Part shown: positions 4,301 through 21,088 of the stretch, in pieces
Layout: each line of letters opens with the position of its first letter
How positions within the stretch are numbered: position 1 is the first letter of the stretch
IMG/VR virus record: IMGVR_UViG_2740892231_000001
Strand: one strand, 5' to 3'
Length of the DNA: 21,088 bases
Source of the DNA: a virus
Lineage: Duplodnaviria; Heunggongvirae; Uroviricota; Caudoviricetes
Made by a program: the position numbers and the translations under genes
The notes under the pieces: generated by a model
What the model was told of the DNA's origin: nothing
Seen by the model: the letters and a program-made list of their open reading frames with translations, nothing else
Database searches by the model: none

Positions 4301-5352
4301 CGTAGCGCGGGTGGGTCAGCATGTCCCACAGGCACCAGGCCGGGTTATTGCTGTATGCCGGTTTCAGNNNNNNNNNNAAAGGTCATCCGCGGCTCTGTGC
4401 CCCCGAAACCATCCGGGACCGTCTGGTCGCAGTACTGCCCGATGGCATACAGTGCCCACTTGTCCACATCCGCGGCCCCCAGGCGTTTTCCCATCCCGTA
4501 GCGCGGGTGGGTCAGCATGTCCCACAGGCACCAGGCCGGGTTATTGCTGTATGCCGGTTTCAGACTCCCGTCCCAGATACCGCTGTAGGTGCGTTTTTCC
4601 GGGTCATAGTTTGACGGCACCTGAATGATGCGACCACGGATATGGTAGTTCACCGTCAGCTGCTGGCCACCAAACTGCTCCGCATCCACCTGCAGCCCCA
4701 CAATGGCCGTGTTCGGGTAGCACTGTTTCACATCGATGATTTCGGTGTATGACGACCACAGCGTTCTGTTCTGCAGCTGGTCCGTGGTGCTGTCCGCCGT
4801 CACCCTGACCATCCGGATGTTAAAGGGGCGCTCAGGGAGATTATTCAGAATCACCGACGTCAGATACTGCGAGGTGGTCTTGCCGTTAATGGTGACATCC
4901 TTCTCCGTCACCCAGTGCCCGTTACGCTCAAGCTGAATCAGCAGGCGGACAGAAGAGGGATTACGGTCACCCTTTGAGGTGGTCTCCACCAGTGACTGTA
5001 CCCCGAAGGTGACCCGCAGACGGTCAATGTTCGCTGACGTGATGGTGCGCGTCACCGGCTTTGCCTTCGTCACCTCCACGCCCAGTGCGGTTTCTGCCCC
5101 GGAGGACTCAAAGCCTTCCGGCGGTGTCTGCTCCTGCTCCCCGGCACGCCAGACGGCGGTCACACCGTGTATCACGGGATTACCGTCCGTGTCCGTCAGC
5201 GGGGTTTTGTTCACCAGAATACTCTGCAGTCCCTTCACCGGACCTTCCACCGGTCCCTCACCAATGGCATCAATCACGCTCATCATCTGCGTGGATTTGA
5301 GATTGTCCTTCGCCTCACGCGGTGTGTGCCCCTTGCCGCCCCCTTTACCCAC
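1357..5352 (-). CDS. J: Tail tip / host specificity protein J (central tail fibre); reading frame apparently broken three times by 10-N gaps with duplicated flanks
   Basis: GTG start at 5352 with AGGAG RBS. N-terminus [22 protein letters not shown] and C-terminus ...[17 protein letters not shown]...[10 protein letters not shown] match lambda gpJ (recalled) across the four ORF fragments 4345-5352, 3405-4322, 2177-3505 and 1357-2196. Net length after removing duplications is about 1150 aa, against 1132 aa for lambda J. Confidence 0.95.
2206..2215. other. 10-N gap inside J, flanked by a ~144-bp imperfect duplication (2062-2205 and 2216-2359)
   Basis: Run of n with near-identical flanks (2 mismatches seen). 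Confidence 0.9.
3425..3434. other. 10-N gap inside J, flanked by a ~168-bp imperfect duplication (3257-3424 and 3435-3602)
   Basis: Run of n with near-identical flanks carrying several mismatches. Confidence 0.9.
4368..4377. other. 10-N gap inside J, flanked by a ~185-bp imperfect duplication (4183-4367 and 4378-4563)
   Basis: Run of n with near-identical flanks carrying several mismatches. Confidence 0.9.
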
Positions 5353-5426: not shown

Positions 5427-5440
5427 GTCATGACGGAATA

Positions 5441-5556
5441 AAATTTCTGAAATTCTTCACATTTCCGGCAATTGCCTGTAGCCACTATAATGACGCAGCG
5501 TTACAGTTTTTTTGCTCAATAAAAGCAATAATTATCAGACCTCCTTAAGGTGACTA
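5441..5556 (+). repeat. Unit A of a tandem pair of paralogous ~115-bp non-coding units in the I-J intergenic insert
   Basis: Shares with unit B the blocks tctgaa(a)tttcttcacattt, gcgttacagtttttt, tcaataaaa and ctcctt in the same order and spacing. Confidence 0.6.
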
Positions 5557-5600
5557 TTCGTCTCCCGTCAGTATCCGGCGATATTACGGGAGATTTTTTT
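5498..5600 (+). ncRNA. Candidate small RNA A, antisense in orientation to the tail operon
   Basis: Perfect -10 hexamer TATAAT at 5486-5491, weak -35. Conserved body. Ends at an intrinsic terminator: bulged hairpin 5561-5593 then T7 at 5594-5600. No conserved ORF. Confidence 0.3.
5561..5600 (+). terminator. Rho-independent terminator (plus strand)
   Basis: Stem tctcccgt / acgggaga, extended by an inner 5-bp helix around loop ccggcg, followed by ttttttt. Confidence 0.6.
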
Positions 5601-5678
5601 GCTTCAGCCACACCACAACATCCTGCTCATTTACGCCACTGGTACCCTGGCGGTCATCCGTTCTGTAAACCTGCGACA

Positions 5679-5790
5679 GAAAAAGTCTGAATTTCTTCAC
5701 ATTTTCTGTACGTTCCCGTGGCAGATATCATTCCGGGGCGTTACAGTTTTTTCGGGTCAATAAAAACAAAACTCCTTGAACGTTAATCTT
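5679..5790 (+). repeat. Unit B of the tandem pair of paralogous non-coding units in the I-J intergenic insert
   Basis: Aligns with unit A block by block; diverged between the conserved blocks. Confidence 0.6.
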
Positions 5791-6522: not shown

Positions 6523-7266
6523 TTTTCAGAATACCTCTCCCGTTTACTCAGTTGTTCAGGTATATGGTGAAGCAGTTCACCGTTGCCACAGTAAATGGCG
6601 GCATGATTCGGCACCGATGAACCAAAGCAGCACAGCAGGATATCGCCCGCCTGTGCACAGGACGGAGACACCCGGTAAAAGCCGTTGTCTGCCAGGTTGT
6701 CCAGGTACAGGTTCTGACCGTTGCGCCACCAGTCATCCTCACGCACAAAATCCGGCAGCGTTATCCCCGCCAGATGGTATGCATCCCGGAACAGGGTGTA
6801 ACAGTCCGTCACACCGTGTTCAAAGCGCCGTCCGGTCAGGTGCGGCACACAGCGGAACCGGTGAATGTCACCCCGGCAGACCAGCCACCAGGGCAGGGCA
6901 CTCTTTATCTGCAGCCGCCGGTCCGCCTCGCTCAGCCAGGGCAGTCCACCGGGATGACTGTGGACCAGCGCCACAATCTCCCCCTGCATCTGTGCCTGCA
7001 GCCAGTCTTCCGGTGCAATACGAAAATACGCCTCCGGCTCTGCGGAGATATTCACGCAGGACTGGTACCGTTCGCCCTCCGGNNNNNNNNNNCTGTGCCT
7101 GCAGCCAGTCTTCCGGCGCAATACGAAAATACGCCTCCGGCTCTGCGGAGATATTCACGCAGGACTGGTACCGTTCGCCCTCCGGGGTGCTTATCACGAA
7201 GCCGCACGACTCCGCAGGCGCACACCGCCGGGCATGCGCCAGAATCACTGATTCAGTCTGTGTCAT
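6420..7266 (-). CDS. K: Tail tip assembly protein K (NlpC/P60 plus JAMM/MPN domain); interrupted by the 10-N gap at 7083-7092 with duplicated flanks
   Basis: ATG at 7266. MTQTESVILAHARRCAPAESCGFV... matches the lambda gpK N-terminus (recalled). HSHPGG metal-binding motif. C-terminal part ...LLCCFGSSVPNHAAIYCG... Overlaps the I start by about 100 bp, as in lambda. Confidence 0.9.
7083..7092. other. 10-N gap inside K, flanked by a ~94-bp duplication (6989-7082 and 7093-7186)
   Basis: Run of n with near-identical flanks (1 mismatch). Confidence 0.9.
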
Positions 7267-7276
7267 AAAACGGGAT

Positions 7277-7975
7277 TTACTGCGAAAGTTTATTAATGGA
7301 AAGGAAACCGCCGAAATTAGCCACCATGCCGCGCATCTCACACCCGCGCATGCATTTACTGCATCTGTCCTTCCGGATATCCGTGGTAGGGTTGTCGAAC
7401 TCATCCGCCACTGCCGGACCGTTATACCCGCACTCATCGCCCCGGTAATCCCACATACAGGTGTTCGCCAGCATGATGCGACCGGGAAACAGCGCCCCGT
7501 CCGTCTCCGTCGGTGTCGCCAGCACAAACGAGGCCGTCATGGCCGTCAGCGATGACATCTGCTCCACCACCCACCGGTCCGTCAGCTCCTGCTCCGGGTC
7601 GGCCTCAGGATTGCCTGCCACAAAATTCACCGCATCCAGAAAACGCGCATACACCCGGCGACGGACCACCGTGGCACCCACCAGGCTCTGCAAATCCTCC
7701 GCCATCCCGGTGACAAGGCCAAACAGATTGGACACCGTCAGCGACGGGCGGGCACTGCTGCCCTTTCCGTTCATCTCAAAGCCGCTGCCCTCAATCGGGT
7801 ACGCCTGATATTCACGCCCCTGCCAGGTCACCGGCTCCCCTTTTTCATTCAGCTCATTGCAGAAAAAATACCGCTCACCGCCCTGCACCGTCAGGTCGAT
7901 TTCCCAGAGCACCACCCGCGGTGACTGCTCTGATTTAACCGACTCGTTCAGGCTTTCTTCGTGAATATCCTGCAT
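7277..7975 (-). CDS. L: Minor tail protein L
   Basis: 232 aa, the same length as lambda gpL. MQDIHEESLNE...VVLWEIDLT...GGERYFFCNE matches the recalled lambda sequence. C-terminal Cys cluster CSKCMRGC. Confidence 0.92.
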   Translation of the reverse strand: MQDIHEESLNESVKSEQSPRVVLWEIDLTVQGGERYFFCNELNEKGEPVTWQGREYQAYPIEGSGFEMNGKGSSARPSLTVSNLFGLVTGMAEDLQSLVGATVVRRRVYARFLDAVNFVAGNPEADPEQELTDRWVVEQMSSLTAMTASFVLATPTETDGALFPGRIMLANTCMWDYRGDECGYNGPAVADEFDNPTTDIRKDRCSKCMRGCEMRGMVANFGGFLSINKLSQ

Positions 7976-8304
7976 CAGTTCACCACCTGCTTAAACTCCG
8001 CGCTGAACTCAACGCGCAACATCCCGACCCGCGCAGACCACCCGGCACAGGTCACCTTTATCTGCCGGTATGCATAGGGTGGCTTCCACAAAAATGCCTT
8101 CCAGCCCCCGTGCTCTGCCAGGAACGCTTCCAGATGCCGGGCCTCCTCCCGGGTCACGGAAAGCGTCACCCGGTATGTTTTCAGGTCAGCATTCAGCCCT
8201 GCCGCCATACGCTGTGAGTACCCGTCACCAAAACGCACTTCACGCACCGACGGCTGCGAGTTCACCTCCATATCCGGCTTCACTTTCCAGCGAAAGGTTT
8301 TCAT
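7975..8304 (-). CDS. M: Minor tail protein M
   Basis: 109 aa. MKTFRWKVKP...VRFGDGYSQR...LRVEFSAEFKQVVN is near-identical in architecture to lambda gpM (recalled). Confidence 0.92.
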   Translation of the reverse strand: MKTFRWKVKPDMEVNSQPSVREVRFGDGYSQRMAAGLNADLKTYRVTLSVTREEARHLEAFLAEHGGWKAFLWKPPYAYRQIKVTCAGWSARVGMLRVEFSAEFKQVVN

Positions 8305-10922
8305 CGCCCGCTCCCTGATAACATACCGCCATCACGCAACTGCAGCCGGAGTTCATCCTGCGCCCCCTTACGGGCCATGTCATACACCGCCTTCATCAGC
8401 TGCGGCCCCGCCTGTCCGTTGATACCGTCGTTCTGAATCACCACGTGATTGTTCTGATTAAAATTAATACCTTCCGCCCGCCGCATCTGCGCCGGACTTC
8501 CGGCACCACCCACATAACCCCCTTCCGCATAGCCGCGCATCAGGCGGTAAAGATTCCCCACACCTATCCGGCTGGTTGCCTCCTTCGTGAAGACAAACTC
8601 CCCGCGGTGAACTATCCCCGCAGGCTCATATTTGCCGCCCGTCCCCGTAAATCCTCCGGTCGCGAAATGGAAGTTCGCCGCCGCAGCCTCAATGGCCGTC
8701 CCCGTGGAGGCAGACGCCCCACCACCGAAAGCACCACCAATGGCGCTGCCGATACGCCCGACAATGCCCACCATGGCCTGTTTAAGCAGGATTTCTGTCA
8801 TCATGGACAGCACCGAACGGGTGAATCCCCGCCAGTTCTGTTCGCTGCCGGTCAGCATCGCCGCCATATTCTGTGCAATACCGTCAAAGGTCTGCGTGGC
8901 CACACTTTTAACCTGCGAAAAACTGTCCGTCGCACTTTCCGCCCACTCCCCCCAGCCGGACTTCAGCCCGGCCAGCCAGTCACCGCGCAGCATGTCTTCA
9001 TCCGCCCATGTCTGTTTCAGTGCCCCGGTGACCCGGGCCAGCGCCTGCGGATTATCGCCATACACGTCACGAAGACGCTGCGCTTCAGACTCCCGCTGCG
9101 CCTGACGGTCAGTGAGACCACGGGCTTTTGCGCTGATGGCGGCCTGCTTCGCGCTCTGCTGCTCTTCAAACCGTGCCGCCTGCTGTGCCAGCTCATTCAG
9201 GCGTTTCTGGTATTCAACCTTGTCGCCCAGCTCAGCCAGCTGGCGTTTGTACTCCAGCGTCTCTTTCTCATGGGCCAGCAGGGATTTTTCCTGCCCGGAT
9301 AACTGTCGTTTCGTGGCGGCCTCTTTCAGGACCGCATACTGACTTTCCGCTTTCCATAAATCACGGCGCTGCTGGCTGATTTTCTCATTCGCACCGCTGT
9401 GCTTCTCCAGCGTCCGGAGCTCAGTTTCAAGCGCCAGCAGGGCTGCATGCGCCCGGTCTTCCTGACGCTCCCCGGCTGACACTCTGACACCTGACGACTT
9501 CGGTTTTTTCTGCGTTGATTCATAATCCTTTTTCGCCGACGCCATCAGCGTGTTGTAATCTGCCTGCAGGATTTTCCCGTCTTTCAGGGCCTGATTCAGC
9601 TCTTTCTGCCGGGCGGTATATTTATCCAGCGGCGACAACAGGCGTTCATACGCTTTCTGCGCCTCTCCGGTATACTTCAGCTGTGACGCCTCACGCTCAG
9701 CCCTGTCCCTTGCCGCCAGTTCACCGGCTTTTTCCATATCCGACTGCAGCGTTGCCGCCGCCAGCCCCAGACGGGCATTTTCCCGGTCATCCCATGCACC
9801 CTGAAGGTTGGCCCGGAAAGAGGAGGTTTTACCGCGGCGCTGGCTCCGGCTCTGGTACCACTGCCATTTTTTATCCGCCTCATCAAATGCCTTCTGCGCA
9901 CTGGCGAGCATATCCGCTGAGGATTCAGGACGACCGATATCCAGAATGGCATCCCACATCGATTTGAACGCCTTCCCTGTTTTATCTGCCCAGGTTTCCA
10001 GCGTCCCCATGTTCTCTTTCAGGCGGCGGGTCTGGTCATCAAAGCCTTTCGTGGCAATATCGTTCGCCGCCTGTAAGGCACCGGCCTCGTCTCCGGAACG
10101 CTGCAGCTGTGCAACATACGCAATCTGCTCTGCCGTCACGTTACGGAACTGGCGCGCCATCGCCATCAGTCCCGACGTCGGGTCGGTGGTCAGCTTTCCG
10201 AAAGCCTCTGCAACCCTGTCCACTTCCACACCGGAGGCAGACGCAAAACGCGCCACACTCTGGTTAATGGCATCAAACTGCTCACCACCACGCACACCGG
10301 CACTGACCAGGGCTGCCAGTGACTCTCCCGCCTGGTTAAACGTCAGCCCTGCTGCCTGTCCGGCTCTGGAGAGCGCCAGCATGCGATCGGCAGTCAGTCC
10401 GGACTGATTACCGGAAAGAACCAGGTTTTTATTAAACGCTGAAAGCGTGGAATCCCCCTGGTACCAGGCATACGCCAGCGCACCTGTCGCGGCGACCAGT
10501 GATGTGATCCCGACGGCAGGTAGCGAGACGGCTCCCGCCAGTCCCCGGAACATCGGGATAAGACCACCGAACGAGTCTTTCACCTGACCGCCCTGTTGCA
10601 GCAGGATGAGCCAGGGATTCTGACCACCGGCAAGCTGCGTGGCAACGTCGGTGAACTGCATGGGTAGCATACGCATGGCGGCTTTATACTGCCCGACGGA
10701 CATCCCGGCTTTTTGTGCAGCCAGCGCCTGGCGGCTCAGCCCCTGCTCAACGGCAGAGGCCTGTTTCTTAAAAGACTGGCTGACACGCCCGGCCATCAAA
10801 TCCGCAAGGTCACTGGTTTCACCCAGTTCTTTCTTTACCCGTGCAGCCTCTTCAGAAAAACGGGTTGAATCCAGTGTAAGAACAGCTGTCAGATCGGCAA
10901 AATTACCCGCCATAGCGTACAC
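8301..10922 (-). CDS. H: Tail tape measure protein H
   Basis: 873 aa. Long matching stretches with lambda gpH (recalled), e.g. SRQALAAQKAGMSVGQYKAAMRMLP and C-terminal HFATGGFTGTGGKYEPAGIVHRGEFVFTKEATSRIG. The true start may be the Met 3 codons downstream (MAGNF...). Confidence 0.95.
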   Translation of the reverse strand: MYAMAGNFADLTAVLTLDSTRFSEEAARVKKELGETSDLADLMAGRVSQSFKKQASAVEQGLSRQALAAQKAGMSVGQYKAAMRMLPMQFTDVATQLAGGQNPWLILLQQGGQVKDSFGGLIPMFRGLAGAVSLPAVGITSLVAATGALAYAWYQGDSTLSAFNKNLVLSGNQSGLTADRMLALSRAGQAAGLTFNQAGESLAALVSAGVRGGEQFDAINQSVARFASASGVEVDRVAEAFGKLTTDPTSGLMAMARQFRNVTAEQIAYVAQLQRSGDEAGALQAANDIATKGFDDQTRRLKENMGTLETWADKTGKAFKSMWDAILDIGRPESSADMLASAQKAFDEADKKWQWYQSRSQRRGKTSSFRANLQGAWDDRENARLGLAAATLQSDMEKAGELAARDRAEREASQLKYTGEAQKAYERLLSPLDKYTARQKELNQALKDGKILQADYNTLMASAKKDYESTQKKPKSSGVRVSAGERQEDRAHAALLALETELRTLEKHSGANEKISQQRRDLWKAESQYAVLKEAATKRQLSGQEKSLLAHEKETLEYKRQLAELGDKVEYQKRLNELAQQAARFEEQQSAKQAAISAKARGLTDRQAQRESEAQRLRDVYGDNPQALARVTGALKQTWADEDMLRGDWLAGLKSGWGEWAESATDSFSQVKSVATQTFDGIAQNMAAMLTGSEQNWRGFTRSVLSMMTEILLKQAMVGIVGRIGSAIGGAFGGGASASTGTAIEAAAANFHFATGGFTGTGGKYEPAGIVHRGEFVFTKEATSRIGVGNLYRLMRGYAEGGYVGGAGSPAQMRRAEGINFNQNNHVVIQNDGINGQAGPQLMKAVYDMARKGAQDELRLQLRDGGMLSGSGR

Positions 10923-11358
10923 CTCCTGGAATTCCCTCAGACACCATCATCAGCATGGCTTCATCCTCTGTACTGCTCCGCATGTCATCACTGACCGTAA
11001 CGATTTCCTTCCCGTCAGCCCCAAAGCGGACACCACCAGAAAGTCCTGCCGCTTTCCGCATCAGCATATCGTCCTCATCCGGCATCTCCGTCTGCTCATC
11101 ATCACGTCGGGGTGCCAGCAGACTGAAATCAGAGGGATGCATATCCGGATCGCAAAAAAACAGGCTGAGTACAGCGTACGTCAGCCCGGAAAAATGCATA
11201 TCCAGCTGGGTATCATGAAAATAATGCGTGCGGTAAAAACGTCGCCAGTCGGCATATTCGGTGGATGTCATCCCGGCAAGCATGGCGCGCCAGTCGGGTC
11301 TCCCCATCTCACGCGCCAGTCTGAGGGCAAAGTTCAGCTCGCCGTCGAAGACTTTCCC
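10903..11358 (-). CDS. T: T portion of the tail assembly chaperone G-T fusion, reached from G by programmed -1 ribosomal frameshift
   Basis: The -1 frame relative to G stays open from the slippery site down to a stop at 10903. I verified by hand that the frame of ORF 10903-11307 is -1 relative to G. Confidence 0.8.
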   Translation of the reverse strand, partial: GKVFDGELNFALRLAREMGRPDWRAMLAGMTSTEYADWRRFYRTHYFHDTQLDMHFSGLTYAVLSLFFCDPDMHPSDFSLLAPRRDDEQTEMPDEDDMLMRKAAGLSGGVRFGADGKEIVTVSDDMRSSTEDEAMLMMVSEGIPGGVRYGG

Positions 11359-11765
11359 GCAGAAAAATCATCATCAGTCAGCGCGTTATTTTTCGCCACT
11401 TCAGTAATATCAGTATCCGGACGAACAGCTTCGATCATACCGGACAGGCACAACACCACGTCTTCCGCCCGGGCAATGGCATCGGCAGGCCAGGTGGTGA
11501 GCACTTCCTGCTCTATCTTCATCACGGCCTCATTCATTGACGGTGACTGCGTTTTCTGTGGATGGTTATGCCACAGGGACATCGCCACCAGAAACGCGCC
11601 GGTTCTGACAAGATCTTCCACACTCACCTGCAGGTTGCCGCTGGCTTCAGCCTCTTCTGCCCGCCGTTTCAGGAGGGCAAGATGCTCAATACGCTGCAGC
11701 GCAGACAGCTCAGAAAGCGTGACAGACACCCCGTTATATTCAAATTGTTCTGTTTTCAGAAACAT
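11334..11765 (-). CDS. G: Tail assembly chaperone G
   Basis: 143 aa. MFLKTEQFEYNGVSVTLSELSALQRIEHLALLKR matches the lambda gpG N-terminus (recalled). Confidence 0.92.
   Translation of the reverse strand: MFLKTEQFEYNGVSVTLSELSALQRIEHLALLKRRAEEAEASGNLQVSVEDLVRTGAFLVAMSLWHNHPQKTQSPSMNEAVMKIEQEVLTTWPADAIARAEDVVLCLSGMIEAVRPDTDITEVAKNNALTDDDFSAGKSSTAS
11352..11358 (-). promoter_or_regulatory. Slippery heptamer G GGA AAG for the G/G-T -1 frameshift
   Basis: Plus strand ctttccc; on the minus strand GGGAAAG sits in the G frame as G_GGA_AAG, 6 codons before the G stop, the same arrangement as in lambda. Confidence 0.85.
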
Positions 11766-11784
11766 GCTTTATCACTCCCTCAGC

Positions 11785-12534
11785 TTAACCCGCTGCACCA
11801 TCCGTGACGGTAATTTCCGCCACTGCCGCAAACTCACCATTGCCGGTAACCACAGGGATCTGCGCTTTACCTGCCGCAACACCTTTCACGGTGATCGTGT
11901 TCCCTTTCACGGTAATGGTGGCGAAATTCTGATTCGCCGACGTGGCACGGAAGGTTTTATCCGTCGCCCCTTCCGGCTGAACAGCCACGGTCAGGGTGAT
12001 ATTCTGACCTTTTGCCACATTGCCCGTTGGTGGCGTCACGGTAATACCGGTGACCGGTGTGATGTCCCCCTGATCTTCCGCCAGCGACGGACGACCGATA
12101 TTGGTGATTTTTACCGTACGGGTGATCACCTCTTTGGCGGTCACCGCTTTACCAATGGCGCTCACCCAGCCACGGAACACATCCACCGTACCGTTCGGGA
12201 AGCGAATTTTGTAGGCCCGGCTCTCACTGCTGTCAAACCAGGCAATCAAATCGCGCTGCCCTTTCTCACCCGGCTTCCAGGCCAGCGTAAAACTGGTGTC
12301 ACCGGCAGATTTCTGCCCCTGCCCGGTGGATACCCAGTCAGCATCCTCATCATCCAGATAGTTATCATCGTAGGATTCTGCCGTCATCTCGCCGGGGGTC
12401 AGATCCTTCACCTTCGCCAGTCGCTGCCAGTCATCGTCTGACAACGGGTTTGCATAAGCATCACCAGTGCCGGTGTACACCCACAGTGTGGTACCGGAAC
12501 CTTTCACCGGCTCAAGAGGATTTGGTGTTGCCAT
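11785..12534 (-). CDS. V: Major tail protein V (with C-terminal Ig-like domain)
   Basis: 249 aa. ...[48 protein letters not shown]... and C-terminal [19 protein letters not shown] match lambda gpV (recalled). Confidence 0.95.
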
Positions 12535-12541
12535 ATCGTCC

Positions 12542-12940
12542 TCACATCTCGTAGGTAATTTTCCACAGGAGATCTGCCGATCCCCACATCATAAACTCAT
12601 CATCCCGGCGGTAGTCATACCCCTGAAGATTCATTTTCAGCAGTAATGCACTGAGCCCGGGAACTGCCTCCAGCGCAGGAAGAATTTTTTCTTCCATCCA
12701 CATATCCAGTGCCGAGTCCGGTTCTTTTGCCCTGAGAAAAACCTCAATATGCAGTGTCGCCTCCCAGGTTCCCTCATCAACGAACTCGTCAGCAGCAGAC
12801 GCATCTGTCAGGTAAACAGCAACAGCAGGCAGTTCCTGTTCATCAATAAAAACCGGGCGACCGTCAAACCAGCTCACCCTCTCAGAAATATTTTCTTTCA
12901 GGGCAGACAGAACTGCCGCCCGTATTTCACGGTGTCTCAT
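12542..12940 (-). CDS. U: Tail terminator protein U
   Basis: 132 aa. ...LHIEVFL.A...SGYDYRRDD...ITYEM matches lambda gpU (recalled). Confidence 0.93.
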
Positions 12941-12952
12941 ACACCCTCCCAG

Positions 12953-13582
12953 TCATTTTCTTTTCAGCACCAGGCGTAACTGATGCGTCATGGCTTTCAT
13001 CATCTGCGCCGGTAATTTTTCCCGGTACATCCGGTCCCGTTCACGTTCAAAGGTTTCTGCCAGCGGTCCGGCAGTCGGAATCTTCACCACTTCGATCGGC
13101 AGACGGTGGCGTTTCGGCCTCCCTTTGCTGTCAGCGCCGGTGGACGATGATGCCCACGGCATACGCTGCATCACATGCCAGCGTCCGTTAGCCAGCCGGG
13201 TGATAAAGGCATCCGGGATCCGTCTTTTCCCCACAATCAGCACGCTGCCACCGCCTTTCGTGACCGAACGCTCGCCTTTCTTTCGTCGCTTTCTGCGGGA
13301 AAGCAGCACGCTGGCCGTCCCCAGTTTTATGGCGGGCAGATTACCGGTGTTGATGATGACCTTCGCATAAACCCTGTCTGCGCTGGCCCGTTGCAGGCGG
13401 ATACGCTCACGGATGAGACGGCGCGGAACCGCCAGCTCCCTGGCAACCGAAGAGGCCGTTTTCGCGATGATGGACTCCGCCACACGGTTAAGTGTCGTGG
13501 CGGCAGCCCGGGGAACGGCACGGCGGTCAATTGCATCCAGATTTTTCATGGCCTGCGCCAGACCTTTTATTGCCATACTCAT
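12953..13582 (-). CDS. Z: Tail completion protein Z
   Basis: 209 aa. MAIKGL.QA..NL...AVP.AAA...NRVA.S.I...VLLSRRKRRKKG.RS..KGGGSVL.VG.RRIP.AFI..L.NGRWHVMQR matches lambda gpZ (recalled). Confidence 0.92.
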   Translation of the reverse strand: MSMAIKGLAQAMKNLDAIDRRAVPRAAATTLNRVAESIIAKTASSVARELAVPRRLIRERIRLQRASADRVYAKVIINTGNLPAIKLGTASVLLSRRKRRKKGERSVTKGGGSVLIVGKRRIPDAFITRLANGRWHVMQRMPWASSSTGADSKGRPKRHRLPIEVVKIPTAGPLAETFERERDRMYREKLPAQMMKAMTHQLRLVLKRK

Positions 13583-13860
13583 TCCTGTTCGACAAAAATC
13601 CGGGGTTTACCGTTGTACGTGTCATAACGGGTCACCGTCAGTGTGCGCCCCGCAAACACAACAACATCATGACGGGCCGGACGGTACCGGGCTGAAAACA
13701 CCACCAGTGACAACTGGCTGCCCGAAAGCGCCCCCATCTCCGCGGACTCTTCCTCCGGCATCACGTCGTACACGACGCCGTTAATCTCCGCCTGTTTGCC
13801 CATCATCCGAACGGTCGCCACGTCCATCCGGCAACACATTCGCGTAAACAGATCAGACAT
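13579..13860 (-). CDS. Head-tail joining / head completion protein (FII position; prophage ATP-binding-sugar-transporter-like family)
   Basis: 93-aa ORF translationally coupled to Z (4-bp overlap). Sits where lambda has FII; only weak resemblance to lambda FII. Confidence 0.5.
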   Translation of the reverse strand: MSDLFTRMCCRMDVATVRMMGKQAEINGVVYDVMPEEESAEMGALSGSQLSLVVFSARYRPARHDVVVFAGRTLTVTRYDTYNGKPRIFVEQE

Positions 13861-14179
13861 TGATTTTTACCGCCACAGCGGCGCTGTTTGCAGGAGCATT
13901 TTCCCAGGCTACTCCCGCTGCCACCGCACCGTCTGCAGCCAGCTGCACAACCCCGTCCTTCAGATAAACCACCGCGCCGGACTGAATATCGTCAGCAGAC
14001 TGTTTGGGCAGCAGGAACACGCCTTCGGCAAAACCGTCACCGGCCTCACCGGCAGGAATATCGGTAATGGCCACGGCCACCATACTGCCGACCACCACCG
14101 CAGCACCGCTCAGGATGGTCTGATCTCCGGCATTCACCAGTTCAATGGTGGTACCGTCCTGTACAAAATTTTTCGCCAT
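13853..14179 (-). CDS. Small head-associated protein of unknown function (possible decoration or head-completion protein)
   Basis: 108-aa Ala/Gly/Val-rich ORF with GGAG RBS, directly downstream of the capsid gene. No convincing similarity to lambda D or FI. Confidence 0.45.
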   Translation of the reverse strand: MAKNFVQDGTTIELVNAGDQTILSGAAVVVGSMVAVAITDIPAGEAGDGFAEGVFLLPKQSADDIQSGAVVYLKDGVVQLAADGAVAAGVAWENAPANSAAVAVKINV

Positions 14180-14195
14180 AATGCTGTTTCTCCGG

Positions 14196-14244
14196 ACAGC
14201 CCCTGTGGGGCTGTTTTTCAGGCATAAAAAAAGCCCTTTCGGGC
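14196..14244 (-). promoter_or_regulatory. Two adjacent hairpins between the capsid gene and the next gene (partial terminator or mRNA-stability element)
   Basis: Minus strand: GCCC-GAAA-GGGC followed by U7 (14226-14244), then ACAGCCCC-aca-GGGGCUGU (14196-14214) directly upstream of the RBS of the 108-aa gene. Confidence 0.35.
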
Positions 14245-14266
14245 AGTGATTGTGATAACGCGGTTA

Positions 14267-16246
14267 TCAGGCCACCGACGAACGCACCAGCCCGCGCCAG
14301 TCAAGTGGTGCCACTCCGGCATCAATACGGATTTTTGTGGCAATACCGTCAGTGGTGAAACCTTCCTGCTGATCAATGTATGGCGTGTCCACACCATCCA
14401 GCCAGGCCACTTCAATGGTGTCAGTGCCCTGTGCCGCCGCCAGATACCAGGTTTTCGGATCTGCCGCATCAAGACGCGCTTCTGCAATCACCTCAGCAAA
14501 GTTCTGGATGGGGTTAATGACACCGGCGTTTGCATCCGCCCCTTTCACGCTGGCCGATTTGATGGTCTGGTTCGCCACCGTCTCCAGTGCCACCGGTACC
14601 AGCATAAAGGCCGGACGGATATTCAGGGCGCGATCGCCTTCTTTCTGCAGGCGCATCATCTGACGGGCCGCATCCAGTCCGGAAACAGAGATCCCCCCGG
14701 TGGCAATATTTTTGTGATCGGCATGGAACAGCGACTTACCGTCGGACAGTTTCGGGTTATCCGTCAGCACCTTGTAAACCAGGTCACCAATCGTTGCCTT
14801 CGCCGCACGCCCCATCTTCATCGGCACGTCCACCAGCATATTCAGATCATCATTGATAATGGCCTGGCGGGTGATGGAGAAAATCTCCCCGTAGGTGGCC
14901 AGAGCAATGGTCTCCTTGCGATCTGAGGTGGTAATGTATTTATACTCCGCCCCCTCACGAACCTGACGCAGAGAACCAAAACCGCCCATCCCCACGCGAT
15001 ACGCTGTTTTGAAGTCTGACAGGCGTCCCTTACGGGTCCACTTCTGGAAGGTTTCTTCTGATTCCTCCCAGCCCTGGATCAGCCCCTTGTTCGACACATC
15101 CAGCAGGATATTGCCAAAATCAGAGGTGCTGTGCGTAAGCGCCAGCCCGACCATCTGCATGGGGTTATAACTGGCCACCCCAATACCGCGCTCCGTCAGT
15201 GACATACGAGCCCATTCACGCAGGGTCATCCCGTTATAGGCGTTATCCTTCTCGACATTTTCAAATCCGGCACGGGCCAGCATCGCCTGGCGGATCCCGT
15301 CTCCCACAAAATTGCCGTTTCCGGCATAAATATGGGCCGGTGTGTTTTTGTTGGTCGGCGAGGACTCCTTGCCCATTTCATTCAGCAGACGTTCACGGGC
15401 CATTTCCAGCGAACAGTCAGGATCAGCCACGCACTGTGCCTGAAGCGTCTGATAGCGACCGCCGAACATGGCAAACAGATCGTTAATGCCTGACATGCGG
15501 GCTTTCTGCTCAGCCATAACGCGGGCGCGAATGGTCGCCTCATCAGACACTGCCGGTACCGGTGATGGTTCTGTTACCGCCGGTGCAGGGATTGTCACTG
15601 TGGTATCACGCGGGGCACTGTTGCGTGGTGGAGTAATCATGTTTCGGATGGATTCCGGCATCTTTTTAAATTCCTCTGTACGTTTTGACTGAATACATGC
15701 CATTGCCTCAACAGCGGGTGTCACCTGGTCAGCAAATCCGTGTGCCAGACATTCGGCACCGGACATCCAGGTTTCATCCGCCAGCATGGCGGCAATTTCA
15801 TCGGTGGTTTTTCCGGTTTTCTGCGCATAGGCTGGCAACAGTACCGATTCGACTTTATCCAGCAAATCAGCATAACTGCGCATATCCTCAGCATCCCCGC
15901 CACTGAATCCCCATGGCTTATGGATCATCATGAAGGCATTTTCCGGCATAATGACCGTATCACCGGCCATCGCAATCACAGATGCCATCGAGGCGGCAAC
16001 GCCATCCACATACACGGTAATGGTCGCCCCCTGATTTTTCAGGGAATTAAAAATGGCGATGCCTTCAAAGACATCGCCACCCGGTGAGTTGATGTGGAGA
16101 TTAATGTGGGTGATATCACCCAGAGCATTCAGTTCGCTGACAAACTGCTTCGCGGTAACTCCCCAGAAACCAATCTCGTCATAAATATAAATATCCGCGT
16201 CACCCGGCCCCCCAGCCTGCATCCTGAACCAGGATTTATTCTTCAT
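14267..16246 (-). CDS. Fused prohead protease (ClpP/S14-like) and HK97-type major capsid protein
   Basis: ORF 14267-16438. Probable true start is MKNKSWF at 16246, which overlaps the portal stop. N-terminal region has ClpP-like motifs (INSPGGDVFEG..., MASVIAMAGD, MIHKPWG); the C-terminal ~300 aa is capsid-like. Confidence 0.7.
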   Translation of the reverse strand: MKNKSWFRMQAGGPGDADIYIYDEIGFWGVTAKQFVSELNALGDITHINLHINSPGGDVFEGIAIFNSLKNQGATITVYVDGVAASMASVIAMAGDTVIMPENAFMMIHKPWGFSGGDAEDMRSYADLLDKVESVLLPAYAQKTGKTTDEIAAMLADETWMSGAECLAHGFADQVTPAVEAMACIQSKRTEEFKKMPESIRNMITPPRNSAPRDTTVTIPAPAVTEPSPVPAVSDEATIRARVMAEQKARMSGINDLFAMFGGRYQTLQAQCVADPDCSLEMARERLLNEMGKESSPTNKNTPAHIYAGNGNFVGDGIRQAMLARAGFENVEKDNAYNGMTLREWARMSLTERGIGVASYNPMQMVGLALTHSTSDFGNILLDVSNKGLIQGWEESEETFQKWTRKGRLSDFKTAYRVGMGGFGSLRQVREGAEYKYITTSDRKETIALATYGEIFSITRQAIINDDLNMLVDVPMKMGRAAKATIGDLVYKVLTDNPKLSDGKSLFHADHKNIATGGISVSGLDAARQMMRLQKEGDRALNIRPAFMLVPVALETVANQTIKSASVKGADANAGVINPIQNFAEVIAEARLDAADPKTWYLAAAQGTDTIEVAWLDGVDTPYIDQQEGFTTDGIATKIRIDAGVAPLDWRGLVRSSVA

Positions 16247-17738
16247 GCTGGCTTTCGGTGTCACGCTGATACTGTCGTTCAGTTCCGGCACTGTTGCCTC
16301 CTTTGTCGTTGACGGGGTCAGTATCAAAGACCAGCCCCAGTCTGCTGTTTTCATCAATTTCAGCCTTGCGGCGACGTTTGACCTCATCCGGATTGCGCCC
16401 GCCGGCACGCACCCAGTCAGATTCTGTCGCTGCACCACCCCGGATCTGAATTCTCCAGGCTTCAGCTTCCTTAACCGGGTCGATCCACGGCATCACCGGA
16501 CCGGAATACGTCGCGTTATATAGCGTTTTCATCTCCACATCCGCCGGAATTTTCAGCAGACCTGCCGCAACCACCATATTCAGCCATGTCCGGTACACCG
16601 GGCGGGTTACCGCGCCAATAAAACAGTCCTGCAGGATCAGGTAACCATCCGTGGACTCGACCAGCTCCTGCCGCTGGGCGCTGTAGGTGCCGTTATAGTT
16701 ACGCGCCGCACTGGAAAAACTCAGACGACTGCCAGCTGCCACTGCACGCAACTGGCCGTTGCGGAAAGTTTCAAGGTTGGGATTGGGACGGTCAGATTTG
16801 ACCATGCCGATATCCTCGCCCTTGCGCAAATCGTCATAAATAATACCCGGGGTGATATGGACTTCCCGCTCGGTTTCTTTGATCCCCGGATCTTCATAGT
16901 CCTGTCCGTCACCTTTACGGATATACAGTCCCAGCGCCGCAGCAATACGCGCCGCTGTCAGTTCCGCATCCTCATACTCTTTAAGGGCACTGATCCGCAT
17001 CAGCACCCCCGATAACATGGATGAGCCTCGCGTCTGATGCAGACGACGAGTGAACTTCAGGTGGATCATTTTTCCGGCAGCGATTTCTTTCGTATCACTC
17101 TGCCGGCCGCTGACCGGATAATTTTTATAAACCAGATATTTTTTCGGTCTTCCCCACTCATCAAGAAAAACCCCCTGATTCAGCCCGGCGGATTCATCAG
17201 TGCGCATGGGAACAAAATCCGGCTCCATCGCCTCAAGCCAGAATGGCACTCCCGCCGTCCGTTCCAGACCGTTTCCCGCACCACTGACCATCTGCGCAAA
17301 CACTTCACCATCCCGCAGCCAGGTCCGCAGCAGTAAACGTTCAAGCACGGGACGGGTATACTGCCCTGTCACATCCGGACTCACGGACCATTCAGCCCAC
17401 AACCGGCGGATATCCGCAGCCAGCTCTGCCGCCATTTCCCCGTTTTTTCGTAATGGCTGAGGCTCCACAATAATTCCCCTGGCACCAATCACCCGCTCTT
17501 CCAGCTTGTCAAACACACCAATCACCAGGTCATGATTGATATCCAGAAAACGGGCCTGCTCCCGCAGGGAAACCGCACCGTATTTACTGAGCTGATCAGC
17601 AGAGCGATTTTCCCGCCGGGCTTTATGTGTCCGGGTCGGTTTCACCGCCTCATAGGCCATGATTAACGCCCTTGAACGCAGTCTGGCTGCTTTCCATCCG
17701 GGGGAAAACACGCCTATCACATCATCAATAATTGCCAT
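16236..17738 (-). CDS. Portal protein (lambda gpB family)
   Basis: 500-aa ORF between the gpW-like gene and the protease/capsid gene; size and position match the lambda-family portal. Confidence 0.8.
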   Translation of the reverse strand: MAIIDDVIGVFSPGWKAARLRSRALIMAYEAVKPTRTHKARRENRSADQLSKYGAVSLREQARFLDINHDLVIGVFDKLEERVIGARGIIVEPQPLRKNGEMAAELAADIRRLWAEWSVSPDVTGQYTRPVLERLLLRTWLRDGEVFAQMVSGAGNGLERTAGVPFWLEAMEPDFVPMRTDESAGLNQGVFLDEWGRPKKYLVYKNYPVSGRQSDTKEIAAGKMIHLKFTRRLHQTRGSSMLSGVLMRISALKEYEDAELTAARIAAALGLYIRKGDGQDYEDPGIKETEREVHITPGIIYDDLRKGEDIGMVKSDRPNPNLETFRNGQLRAVAAGSRLSFSSAARNYNGTYSAQRQELVESTDGYLILQDCFIGAVTRPVYRTWLNMVVAAGLLKIPADVEMKTLYNATYSGPVMPWIDPVKEAEAWRIQIRGGAATESDWVRAGGRNPDEVKRRRKAEIDENSRLGLVFDTDPVNDKGGNSAGTERQYQRDTESQHEE

Positions 17739-17974
17739 TAAAACCTCGCCAGTTTAAATCCCGGTTTTCCCCGCCTGCGGCTCACCATCGCGGCAAGCCT
17801 GCGTTCCCACTCCTGACGTCCGGCGCGGATCTGAGAAAGGCTTTCCAGCGTCAGTTGCTGCCCGTTGAAGGTGACAGACTTCCCCTCCAGTACAGCCATT
17901 TCCGCTTCACGGTACCGCTGTATCATTTCTCTGGCTTCTTCTGTGCTCACAACCAGCCTCCTGATGTTATCCAT
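17738..17974 (-). CDS. Head-tail joining protein, gpW-like
   Basis: 78 aa, between terminase and portal. C-terminal RRRGKPGF resembles lambda gpW ...RRRGPAGF (recalled). Confidence 0.7.
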   Translation of the reverse strand: MDNIRRLVVSTEEAREMIQRYREAEMAVLEGKSVTFNGQQLTLESLSQIRAGRQEWERRLAAMVSRRRGKPGFKLARF

Positions 17975-20070
17975 GGATTATCTTCCGCACGCTCCGTCCG
18001 CAGTTTTTTCTTCCGGCGACGGCGTTTTTCTGCCCCGGCCGTCAGTTCCGGGGATACCGTTTCACCAGAACGCTCCTGCGGGAAGACGAGCCACGTTTCC
18101 CGCTGTGCCCAGTCCGGTGCGGAGGGCCAGCGGATCTTTTCATAACCATGCAGAACAGCAAGCGCATCCGCATAAACCAGCAGGTCAAACGCCTCGTTAG
18201 CGCCCCTGCCCGGTTTTCGCCATTTTCCGTCACTGCCGCGCTCTTCATAGGTCAGCTCATCGTAAAACCACCGCCCCAGCCAGTCGGGAAAGTGGATATA
18301 ATTCGGCCCTGGTGTGTCACGCCACAGGGCATTATTTACACGGTCCTTAAACGCATCCGTCTGAACCAGCCACAGCGCAACATCGCCACTGGCTCTGGCA
18401 CGGCGGGCACTTCTGCCGGTATTATCCGGGAAGGTACGGTTAATCAGCCTGTCACGGCGAAGACCATCCCCCTTGAACAGAAACACCCTGTTGCCCAGTC
18501 CGTCACTCCGGCAACGACGCCAGAAACGATAGGCGTTATCTGTCACTCCGGCTTCCCCTCCCGTATCCACCGCCATGGCCATCAGACGCATGCGCACATC
18601 CGGATCAGAAGCCAGCGGCCATGTTTTATGGAACACATCCGTCAGCAACAAATCCCAGTCCTCCGGATATGCCGCCGGATCAACCGGCAGACTTTCACCG
18701 TTGGGACTGCAGCGCAGTGAATGCCGGATGTTGTAGCGATCAACAATCCAGCGTTCCCCCTGCTCTCCGTATCCGGTGATCTGCACAACAAAACGGCGAT
18801 TTTTACCGCCCTGTACGTCAACCGTTGCCTCAATAAAACGCACACCATCCGGCACAGATCGCCGGGGAAACGGCTCGGCACGCTGTTCAAGCAGTTCACT
18901 TTTACGCTGTTCCGTGGCTGAACGGGGCAGATAGGGTCGTCCGATATCGGTGTTCACCACCGCTTTCAGGGTCTCTTCACTGCCGGTTCGCTCATACTCT
19001 TCTTCTGCCGCCAGCAGTTTAAAAATCAGTTGTTCCCAGGTCTGAAACGCCGCAGCCGGCCCCTCCATCCAAAATGACGCAATCCGGGAATTTCGTGGCG
19101 TTCCGGTGATACTGCCGTCCGCCGCCGCCCGTTCACCTTCACGAAGCCAGATCCCCTGGTTATTCAGTTCACGCTTCTGTTCCGGAGCAATCAGGCCGCG
19201 ACAGTGCGGACACATCAGGCGGGCCGCCTGCCCGGCAGCCACAAAATCAGGGTTATTCCGGTAACCGGTCATGTTATCCATCACCGGCTGAAAATATTCC
19301 CCGCAGTGCGGACACGGCCAGTACCACCGGCGGCGGTCTCCCCGGTTATACAGTGACAGGATCCCCGTTGTTGGCGGTGCCTCATGTGCGCCGCCACAGC
19401 GCCATTTGGTGTCAGTGATATCCCGCCCGGGCGAACTTTCGACCAGGGTCATCCCCGAGGACATAAAGGTGGTGGTACGCTTTGAGGCCAGGGTGAAGGC
19501 ATCCCCTTCACCGTCGACGTTCTCAGGAAAACGGTCATAATCCGTCAGCGCCACACGACGGTAATCCGAAGAGGAAAATACAGTGATCGACGGCCAGCCA
19601 ATTTTCAGGAATGAGCCGTCAAGAAACATTTTGTCGTGGACGTTGTTGTCATTACGGGAAGGGCTGAGGCGCTTACTGACCTCCGGACTGTGGCGAAACG
19701 TCCTGGAAAGACGCGTTCTGGAATGCTCACGCGCCTTTGTCTCGGTCATCTGCACCACCAGCATATCCGCCGGATCACAGATGATGCCGTACACAATCCA
19801 GCCATCAATCAGCCCTTCGGTTTTCCCGGTTCGCGCAGGTCCCACAAACACCACCGCGTCATATTCACGGGCTGATAATGTATTAATGGGGTCAATCATA
19901 TAGGGCGTCAGCGATGACTCCCACGGACCGGAAGTATTGGCTCCCCGTGGTACCCGCATATAACGCCTGATGGCTTCCGCTACTGGTAACCGGCCAGGTG
20001 GGCGAAACAGCGAGGCCACTTCGCGCCAGATATCGGATGCGCGGCTATGGCTCTCGTTCACCTGATTCAC
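17947..20070 (-). CDS. Terminase large subunit (GpA family)
   Basis: 707 aa. Walker A-like VFVGPARTGKTE. Zinc-finger-like CPHCGEYF...CPHCRG. Overlaps the small subunit stop by 4 bp (translational coupling). Confidence 0.85.
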   Translation of the reverse strand: MNQVNESHSRASDIWREVASLFRPPGRLPVAEAIRRYMRVPRGANTSGPWESSLTPYMIDPINTLSAREYDAVVFVGPARTGKTEGLIDGWIVYGIICDPADMLVVQMTETKAREHSRTRLSRTFRHSPEVSKRLSPSRNDNNVHDKMFLDGSFLKIGWPSITVFSSSDYRRVALTDYDRFPENVDGEGDAFTLASKRTTTFMSSGMTLVESSPGRDITDTKWRCGGAHEAPPTTGILSLYNRGDRRRWYWPCPHCGEYFQPVMDNMTGYRNNPDFVAAGQAARLMCPHCRGLIAPEQKRELNNQGIWLREGERAAADGSITGTPRNSRIASFWMEGPAAAFQTWEQLIFKLLAAEEEYERTGSEETLKAVVNTDIGRPYLPRSATEQRKSELLEQRAEPFPRRSVPDGVRFIEATVDVQGGKNRRFVVQITGYGEQGERWIVDRYNIRHSLRCSPNGESLPVDPAAYPEDWDLLLTDVFHKTWPLASDPDVRMRLMAMAVDTGGEAGVTDNAYRFWRRCRSDGLGNRVFLFKGDGLRRDRLINRTFPDNTGRSARRARASGDVALWLVQTDAFKDRVNNALWRDTPGPNYIHFPDWLGRWFYDELTYEERGSDGKWRKPGRGANEAFDLLVYADALAVLHGYEKIRWPSAPDWAQRETWLVFPQERSGETVSPELTAGAEKRRRRKKKLRTERAEDNPWITSGGWL

Positions 20071-20543
20071 ATATCGGCCTCATCACAACAGTCAATGACT
20101 GCCTTTTCCAGTGTGTCGCGGATCTCATCAACCACAATCTGTACTTCATTCAGTTGTGATGCGGTCCACCCCCTGTCCCTCTCCAGCCGGTCAGGCCAGG
20201 TTTCCAGTACCTGAACTATCGCTTTCACCACGACAGAAAAGGACCGCCTGACATCACTGACTGACACGAGCAGACCGGTTTCCTGCTCAAATTTCAGTCG
20301 GTCACGTTCTGACTGGTACCATGCTTTACGCGCATGAGGATCCATTTCCTCGTTATCTACAGGCAGAGGAGCTTTCATCAGCTCGGCAAGGATATCTGTC
20401 AGTCGGTACAGTTTGAGATTGCTCTCATGACCACCGGCTGGGCTTATGTTTTTTACCCGAGCCGCGACAGTCTGTCGATGAGCACCGGATAATGCAGCCA
20501 GTTGGGAAATATTCAGATGCAGATTTTTTAATTCACGATCCAT
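20067..20543 (-). CDS. Terminase small subunit (Nu1-like, N-terminal HTH)
   Basis: 158 aa directly upstream of and overlapping the large terminase. N-terminal HTH-like LNISQLAALSGAHRQTVAARV. Confidence 0.6.
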   Translation of the reverse strand: MDRELKNLHLNISQLAALSGAHRQTVAARVKNISPAGGHESNLKLYRLTDILAELMKAPLPVDNEEMDPHARKAWYQSERDRLKFEQETGLLVSVSDVRRSFSVVVKAIVQVLETWPDRLERDRGWTASQLNEVQIVVDEIRDTLEKAVIDCCDEADM

Positions 20544-20679
20544 AACTTCCCCTGAAAATTATGTAAATACACGCCAGTGATGAACAAAAAACAATCAACT
20601 TCGACACTAAAAATTTTTATTATGATATATATCAATGATTTACACTGGTGGTAATGGTGCCATAAAAATCAAAAAATGC

Positions 20680-20720
20680 GCCTTTTTCCGCGCCGCCCGC
20701 CCCGTGTTCAGGCCCATCCC
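20680..20720. other. Candidate cos region (cohesive-end site) upstream of the terminase genes
   Basis: Minus strand GGGGCGGGCGGCGCGG resembles the lambda left end GGGCGGCGACCTCGCGG (recalled), about 160 bp upstream of the small terminase start. Followed by an AT-rich, possibly bent tract at 20590-20680. Confidence 0.3.
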
Positions 20721-21088
20721 ACCAGGAGGACCCGCAAAATAATAATGATTATCATTTTTAATGTAGTCCGGTTTCTTCCACCATCGCACCGGACAGGCGA
20801 CTATGAGGGGACAACGCCGCGCTCCGTTAACGCGGTAAACCCCGGTGTGTATCGTTTTTGATTATCCCCGCACACTCGCGCAGAGGAGTCTCCCTGTCGG
20901 GCTGCGGTCTCTGTTAATGCAGGAATACAGCGACAATACCGCGCATGGATAATAAGGTCGCTCAACACACTGGCTGTAATGCAGCAGATACCATGCGGCA
21001 TTTAGCGGCATTCATCGTACACTCAACGGTTAGCTCTTCATTCGTGGCATTCACCTGAAAGGTCCGGGAGTGTAATTGCGTACATTTA

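Follow-up and report, generated by a model that had tools for sequence, protein, structure and literature searches.

Where does the head of a lambdoid prophage end and its tail begin, when the one no longer resembles phage lambda and the other still does? This question is raised by the late genes of a Caudoviricetes sequence of 21,088 nucleotides (nt), IMG/VR record IMGVR_UViG_2740892231_000001, whose whole length we refer to as the window. Head/tail mosaicism is a textbook trait of lambdoid phages. We found that the late operon in this region is of an ordinary kind that has been described before, from a lambdoid prophage that is very common in Escherichia coli and resembles Shiga toxin (Stx) phages, and that positions 13579-20543 very probably represent the head-and-connector half of such an operon, of the Gifsy-2 type. 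The unit exchanged among E. coli lambdoid phages comprises the head genes, the decoration gene, the FII-like gene, and Z and U, and its joint lies between U and V.

Gene content and relatives of the head module

The predicted genes of the head module are, in reading order (sizes in amino acids, aa):

20067..20543, minus strand: small terminase, 158 aa, Gifsy-2/mEp460 type (Pfam DUF1441, 5e-47; PHROG 141 'terminase small subunit')
17947..20070, minus strand: large terminase, 707 aa, distant member of the lambda gpA family (GpA_ATPase, 1.8e-81; GpA_nuclease, 6.2e-84)
17738..17974, minus strand: head-tail adaptor at the lambda W position, 78 aa (PHROG 118 'head-tail adaptor', 4.5e-33)
16236..17738, minus strand: portal, 500 aa, lambda family at the profile level (Pfam Phage_portal_2 'lambda family', 2.8e-80)
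14267..16246, minus strand: tripartite capsid gene, 659 aa, with a ClpP-like prohead protease, a central presumed scaffold, and the major capsid protein (NF045540, PHROG 133)
13853..14179, minus strand: head decoration (cement) protein, 108 aa (Phage_cement_2, 2.7e-18; PHROG 122 'head decoration', 1.3e-38)
13579..13860, minus strand: FII-position head-tail connector, 93 aa, Gifsy-2 STM1035 family (Pfam Gifsy-2 PF13856, 1.7e-13)

The prophage group with this head includes VT1-Sakai, CP-1639, 1720a-02, cdtI, and mEp460. Over 13579-20543, 1720a-02, ASU11, CP-1639, VT1-Sakai, and Stx2a phages are 97-98.5% identical in nucleotide sequence to the window and have matching annotations, and the entire window aligns with 1720a-02 at 96% identity over 94% of its length. 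The differences from the Stx and lambdoid phage relatives are allelic only. The comparison of gene order that the original prediction had called for gives a match to both mEp460 and Gifsy-2: the order in mEp460 is identical to that of the window, and Gifsy-2 shares the succession of small and large terminase, adaptor, portal, ClpP-scaffold-capsid fusion, decoration protein, and STM1035-type connector, followed by Z-U-V-G-T-H-M-L-K-I-J. From the small terminase to the FII-like gene, amino-acid identity is 50-78% with mEp460 and 39-67% with Gifsy-2 (small terminase, 62% and 42%; large terminase, 71% and 67%; portal, 78% with mEp460), and the fusion protein has 62% identity to that of Gifsy-2 from end to end. 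Gifsy-2 belongs to a Salmonella lineage, whereas the window is from E. coli; the window proteins V to M are 67-80% identical to those of lambda but 27-60% identical to those of Gifsy-2, and the lom-like and sodC morons that Gifsy-2 carries between M and L are absent from the window.

The Gifsy-2 arrangement has been reported before. Passages in PMC12315714 and PMC8538268 cite Effantin et al. (2010, Virology 402:355) for a 'tripartite capsid gene' in Gifsy-2, and the passage in PMC12315714 describes the fused protease/coat gene. In its corresponding passage, a 2021 cryo-electron microscopy (cryo-EM) paper places a trimeric cement protein on each three-fold axis in Gifsy-2 and lambda, among others (PMC8538268). 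A cement protein is common to lambda and Gifsy-2-type phages.

Compared with lambda, the head is divergent to a degree that differs between genes. A tblastn search of the lambda late proteins against the window (E<=0.01) left Nu1, W, C, Nu3, D, E, FI, and FII unmatched but found lambda A (24% aa identity with the large terminase) and lambda B (21% with the portal). In hhalign, a profile of the fused family matched the S49 domain of lambda C marginally (E=0.027), with PGG and AAS motifs aligned, and showed no similarity to the single sequences of lambda E (0.4) and HK97 gp5 (0.25), negatives whose meaning is restricted by the shallow alignment of 26 fused proteins behind the profile (Neff, the effective number of sequences, is 1.4). 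The window head genes retain the layout Nu1-A-W-B-protease/scaffold and share the functional order of the lambda head, with large terminase and portal in the same Pfam families. They include a gpA-family terminase and a lambda-family portal, both of which belong to a lambda-type head, but not the S49 protease C with a nested Nu3, nor D, E, FI, or FII. The protease is of family S14 here and of family S49 in lambda; the capsid gene is separate in lambda but fused to protease and scaffold here; and the decoration gene precedes the capsid gene in lambda but follows it in the window. By its layout and by two of its predicted proteins, the head is a distant relative of the lambda head that differs in protease, scaffold, capsid, and decoration.

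The original prediction had described the head as non-lambda, without lambda C, Nu3, D, and E, and with two small genes in place of FI and FII. The lack of similarity to C, Nu3, D, and E holds, the marginal profile match to C aside, and extends to Nu1, W, FI, and FII; terminase and portal, however, fall into the lambda A and B families, so that 'non-lambda' is too broad for them. The two small genes have to be treated separately. The 93-aa protein matches PF13856 and the Gifsy-2 protein of PDB entry 2PP6 (1.7e-13 over 92 residues), with Phage_attach, the FII family, below threshold (0.007), and is predicted to be the FII-position connector, as proposed. The 108-aa protein is not FI: its matches to Phage_cement_2 and PHROG 122 predict a protein with the function of lambda D, encoded downstream of the capsid gene. 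The decoration gene lies directly downstream of the fused gene and has syntenic counterparts in Gifsy-2, mEp460, and a Pseudomonas phage; a sequence search found no solved structures that resemble its product. No counterpart of FI was found among the window genes.

Many lambdoid prophages in the genomes of Shiga toxin-producing E. coli (STEC) are defective, and the arrangement might likewise belong to a decayed, cryptic prophage in which it has no current function. The tape-measure gene of the closest complete genome has an internal stop, and J looks fragmented in the window. However, the open reading frames (ORFs) from the small terminase through L are all intact and of the expected length, including H, which encodes 873 aa here, and inducible phages (1720a-02 and Stx phages) carry the same module. 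The fragments of J coincide exactly with gaps and duplicated contig ends, and their origin is hence an artefact of assembly. The window is a draft scaffold with six runs of exactly 10 Ns in its low-coordinate third (291-300, 1185-1194, 2206-2215, 3425-3434, 4368-4377, and 7083-7092), each bracketed by a direct repeat of 84-185 nt with 93-99% identity. These repeats are overlapping ends of contigs that were not merged, and the probable cause is that one genome contains several similar prophage tails. With its breaks at such places, the lambda J homologue (1363-5352, minus strand) appears as four ORFs that correspond to the overlapping lambda-J coordinates 1-324, 264-574, 515-895, and 854-1131. 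We rejected decay on the intact ORFs from the small terminase to L and on the artefactual breaks in J, and consider it unlikely. The stretch 7093-21088 is free of gaps, and 9907-21088 is collinear with a complete genome at 98.2% identity; the draft state therefore leaves the assignment to a Gifsy-2-type operon unaffected.

Two further observations concern the same end of the window. In the complete genome NZ_CP075632, J is one coding sequence (CDS) of 3468 nt, and K (7121-6420) crosses an N gap in the window.

Position of the mosaic joint

The genes around the joint, again in reading order, are:

12953..13582, minus strand: tail completion protein Z, with a start at 13582 or 13576 (Pfam Minor_tail_Z, 5.6e-56)
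12542..12940, minus strand: tail terminator U (Pfam Phage_tail_U, 4.2e-52)
12535..12560, no strand assigned: recurrent recombination joint, covering the 3' end of U plus the U-V spacer (match ends and sliding identity)
11785..12534, minus strand: major tail protein V, first gene of the block that the window has in common with lambda-head phages (Phage_TTP_12, 2.1e-67; Big_2)

The stop codon of the FII-like gene overlaps the first ATG of Z (ATGA) and lies 2 nt before the second (13576), which aligns with residue 1 of lambda Z and is the start used by the NCBI Prokaryotic Genome Annotation Pipeline (PGAP).

The lambda-like character of the tail from Z through J, which the original prediction recognised, is borne out by amino-acid identities of 52-86% in lambda order. 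In tblastn, V is 76% identical to its lambda homologue, G 67%, T 74%, H 74%, M 80%, L 77%, K 86%, I 70%, and J 80-52%, and the predicted proteins are collinear homologues of the products of all lambda tail genes from Z to J, which makes the tail lambda-type. The similarity is nevertheless uneven. Z is 54% identical to lambda, 42% to mEp460, and 29% to Gifsy-2, and U is 55%, 50%, and 53% identical, respectively, whereas the proteins from V to I are nearest to lambda at 67-80% (86% for K), and those from V through M are clearly closer to lambda than to mEp460 or Gifsy-2.

At the nucleotide level, the larger change is located at the end of U. Sliding-window identity to lambda rises at about 12,560 from about 0.49 to about 0.75, and identity to PhiR12_2 from about 0.55 to 0.92; continuous blastn similarity to lambda starts at 12,622, with just one island inside Z. 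Matching to all lambda-type phages in the phage collection, and to PhiR12_2/PhiR5_1, stops at window position 12559. The same position recurs in bacterial genomes. Of 1717 complete E. coli genomes with a match to 12100-14200, 533 contain the whole stretch of V, U, Z, the FII-like gene, and the decoration gene. The hits were obtained with megablast and thus cover alleles of at least about 80% identity; in a spread sample of 60 of them, the best 19 span the whole stretch, 40 of the other 41 end at 12559-12560, and none ends between the FII-like gene and Z. Beyond the joint, the head can be a different one: PhiR12_2 and a prophage of E. coli RM9245 have full lambda-type heads (S49 protease, D, E, FI, and FII) with their own Z and U, joined to a V whose 5' part is about 90% and 93% identical, respectively, to that of the window. 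Because the jumps in identity and the match ends coincide at about 12,560, we place the end of the exchanged unit after U and the joint between U and V.

The original prediction had placed the recombination boundary between the FII-position gene and Z, where a single event would have joined a foreign head to a lambda tail. Some features of the sequence agree with this placement. Detectable protein similarity to lambda begins at residue 1 of Z and is missing from the FII-like gene, nucleotide identity to lambda increases at 13,580 to about 0.55, compared with about 0.44 at random, and blastn similarity to mEp460 stops nearby, at 13,694, within the FII-like gene. However, in Gifsy-2 and mEp460 the same type of head is also followed by Z and U, and the transition between the FII-like gene and Z is therefore a property of the whole group. 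Z and U reach merely 54-55% identity to lambda, compared with 67-86% for V to K, and not one of the sampled matches ends at this transition, compared with the 40 that end at 12559-12560. Moreover, in the lambda-head prophages named above, a V like that of the window (about 90-93% in its 5' part) adjoins Z and U genes of the prophage's own. An exact joint between the FII-like gene and Z is thus improbable, and this transition is merely where lambda homology becomes detectable at the protein level; the boundary has to be moved to U|V.

Head-tail joining in lambda depends on an established contact between FII and U. A joint between U and V would be understandable in functional terms if the terminator U and the FII-like connector have to fit each other, and U|V may be preferred as a crossover since the FII-like protein, Z, and U must co-evolve with the head. 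A paper on co-transfer in lambdoid phages (PMC9836094) yielded nothing specific to FII, Z, or U.

Beyond the joint, the tail is itself a patchwork. Compared with PhiR12_2, G is 98%, M 99%, L 95%, and V 70% identical. H is 91% identical to the best complete genome at 7093-9689, with 217 nt (9690-9906) left unaligned by megablast, and the rest of the alignment with that genome is at about 98%; the part of H between 7093 and 9906 is a further mosaic patch. The lambda heptamer for the programmed -1 frameshift between G and T, GGGAAAG, is conserved at 11358-11352 (minus strand), 18 nt before the stop codon of G, where the alignment with lambda T begins; by itself the motif occurs at chance frequency in the window, and its significance rests on its position. 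The best complete genome lacks a segment of 250 nt (5513-5762) that lies between I and J in the window. The last part of this segment copies, at 74% identity, the 73 nt just before it (5440-5512), down to the same CGTTACAGTTTTTT terminus; the segment may be a small duplication or an insertion. NZ_CP075632, the closest complete genome, has an annotated Hok/Gef family toxin gene (2224-2364, corresponding to about 920-1060 of the window) in the interval from J to the side tail fibre gene.

The fused protease and capsid gene

The tripartite capsid gene is divided into three parts:

15719..16156, minus strand: ClpP/S14 protease domain, residues 31-176 (Pfam CLP_protease, 3.3e-36)
15155..15718, minus strand: central region, residues 177-364, presumed scaffold or delta-like domain, without a family match
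14279..15154, minus strand: major capsid protein domain, residues 365-656 (Pfam Phage_capsid_4, 1.2e-55; Mu-like_gpT, 5.2e-10)

The original prediction of one ORF that combines a ClpP-type protease with a capsid protein proved right. The minus-strand frame from 16246 to 14267 is open throughout (659 codons and a stop, with a possible upstream GTG start at 16438), and it matches both CLP_protease and Phage_capsid_4. The curated family NCBIfam NF045540 scores 1002.5 bits against a cutoff of 475 and aligns residues 17-657 with profile positions 2-651 of 652, and PHROG 133 covers the ORF end to end. An identical 659-aa protein is already held in the public protein collection, at least 4325 protein clusters match at E<=1e-20, and nucleotide matches to the gene occur in 2070 of 5426 complete E. 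coli genomes. Single-ORF homologues are found in mEp460 (78% identity), Gifsy-2 (62%), and a Pseudomonas phage (58%).

The original prediction had itself raised the possibility of a hidden frameshift, and a draft scaffold that contains six 10-N gaps, with contig ends left unmerged, might be suspected of having merged separate protease/scaffold and capsid genes through a sequencing or assembly error, but this is as good as impossible: the gene lies within the gap-free stretch, PGAP annotates the identical uninterrupted CDS of 1980 nt in complete genomes, 80% or more of its length is matched in 1811 complete E. coli genomes, full-length profiles of NF045540 and PHROG 133 exist, and the homologous proteins of Pseudomonas, Salmonella, and E. 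coli phages (58-78% identity) are likewise each encoded by one ORF, so that we rejected an artefact on the strength of a single frame conserved across distant relatives.

The N-terminal domain aligns with the ClpP structure 6hwm_A in the PDB (3.2e-19), and the alignment pairs GVAASMAS with GMAASMAA at the nucleophile motif and MMIHKPWG with VMIHQPWG at the histidine motif. S86, H109, D157, and E158 of the fused protein are unchanged across 26 homologues; the predicted catalytic residues are S86, H109, and, as the third, acidic residue, D157 or E158. The C-terminal 360 residues have matches to solved capsid proteins (9jod_A, 8.5e-6; the Mu GpT-domain entries 8rkx/8rkc, about 8e-4). Neither Pfam domain reaches into the central region of about 190 residues (177-364), and no family match was found there. 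Part of this region is a variable Pro-rich linker, as seen in the many x positions of the 26-homologue consensus.

Lambda likewise combines functions, as its scaffold Nu3 is nested within the protease gene C, and in HK97 a scaffold segment is fused to the capsid protein and cut off by the phage protease, a concept that the fused ORF shares. HK97 differs in that its protease is a separate protein from another family and that it lacks a decoration protein, and hhalign showed no sequence similarity between its gp5 and the fused ORF. In the window protein, the central region is presumed to be a scaffold or delta-like domain that would be removed at maturation, a role that derives from Effantin et al. 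(2010) as cited in PMC12315714.

Just past the ClpP domain, Met196 (codon 15659-15661) is located in an invariant K-M-P, with a GAGG about 11 nt upstream. Met196 could be an internal start that gives a protease-less scaffold-capsid protein, comparable to lambda Nu3 made from inside C; we regard this proposal, and separately the one that U|V is a preferred crossover point, as doubtful. If Met196 is used, translation would set the ratio of protease to shell subunits, instead of a protease being attached to every subunit.

In the spacer between the fused gene and the decoration gene, 14197-14244 (minus strand) contains a GCCC-GAAA-GGGC hairpin followed by seven Ts and a 7-bp hairpin, CAGCCCC-ACA-GGGGCTG. 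The annotation of mEp460 has a rho-independent terminator at the matching position. A terminator scan with a minimum of five pairs did not report the hairpin with the 4-bp stem at 14197-14244.

Several points weigh against reading the region as a Gifsy-2-type head joined to its tail at U|V. The AlphaFold2 model of the fused protein, built on the 26-sequence alignment, is unusable (mean predicted local distance difference test score, pLDDT, 35.8; predicted template modelling score, pTM, 0.23), as none of the listed homologues falls below 75% identity. An HK97 fold in the capsid domain would rest on family membership, the weak matches to solved capsids, and a cryo-EM reconstruction of Gifsy-2 that has reportedly been published. 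The megablast population test, given its identity threshold, would miss any older joint that lies between the FII-like gene and Z. The draft scaffold gives no basis for judging the intactness of the whole prophage.

Proposed assembly model and implications

What is observed directly is which genes are present, to which families they belong, their synteny with Gifsy-2, and where the breakpoint lies; on this basis, a path of particle assembly can be proposed. The head and connector genes appear to form one minus-strand transcription unit in which stops and starts overlap or abut. Read from the sequence, the portal stop and the fused-gene start overlap by 11 nt, and the decoration and FII-like genes overlap by 8 nt (ATGTCTGA). 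The unit would yield the small and large terminase, the W-position adaptor, the portal, and one 659-aa polyprotein that begins with a ClpP-like serine protease, continues with a scaffold-like segment, and ends in a major capsid domain of the HK97/Mu-gpT kind. From citations of the Gifsy-2 work and general knowledge of HK97 and lambda, the polyprotein would build the procapsid. By analogy with Gifsy-2, the protease would then excise itself and the scaffold segment, the shell would expand upon DNA packaging, and the 108-aa cement protein would bind the shell as lambda D does. Finally, the 93-aa FII-like protein would close the portal vertex and dock the finished tail via the terminator U. For both the processing pathway and the protein contacts, we infer the course from these better-known phages.

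Two side observations concern the upstream part of the unit. In a complete genome, PGAP starts the W-position adaptor at the ATG at 17950, which gives a 213-nt CDS of 70 aa. When up to 2 mismatches to lambda cosN (GGGCGGCGACCT) were allowed, the window contained a single match, in H and at chance level. By eye, we noticed a candidate cosN, GGGCGGCGCGGA, at 20687-20698 (minus strand), which precedes the small terminase gene by about 150 nt; cohesive ends of 12 nt with a similar sequence are reported for mEp213/LLS (GGGCGGCGCGCT) and lambda (GGGCGGCGACCT).

The head module adds little to existing knowledge, as it is covered by a curated NCBI family and by published cryo-EM work on Gifsy-2 and is present in more than one third of complete E. 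coli genomes. The useful refinement is the position of the joint: the exchangeable head unit ends at U|V. For the typing of prophages in STEC genomes by their modules, this joint is a practical warning.

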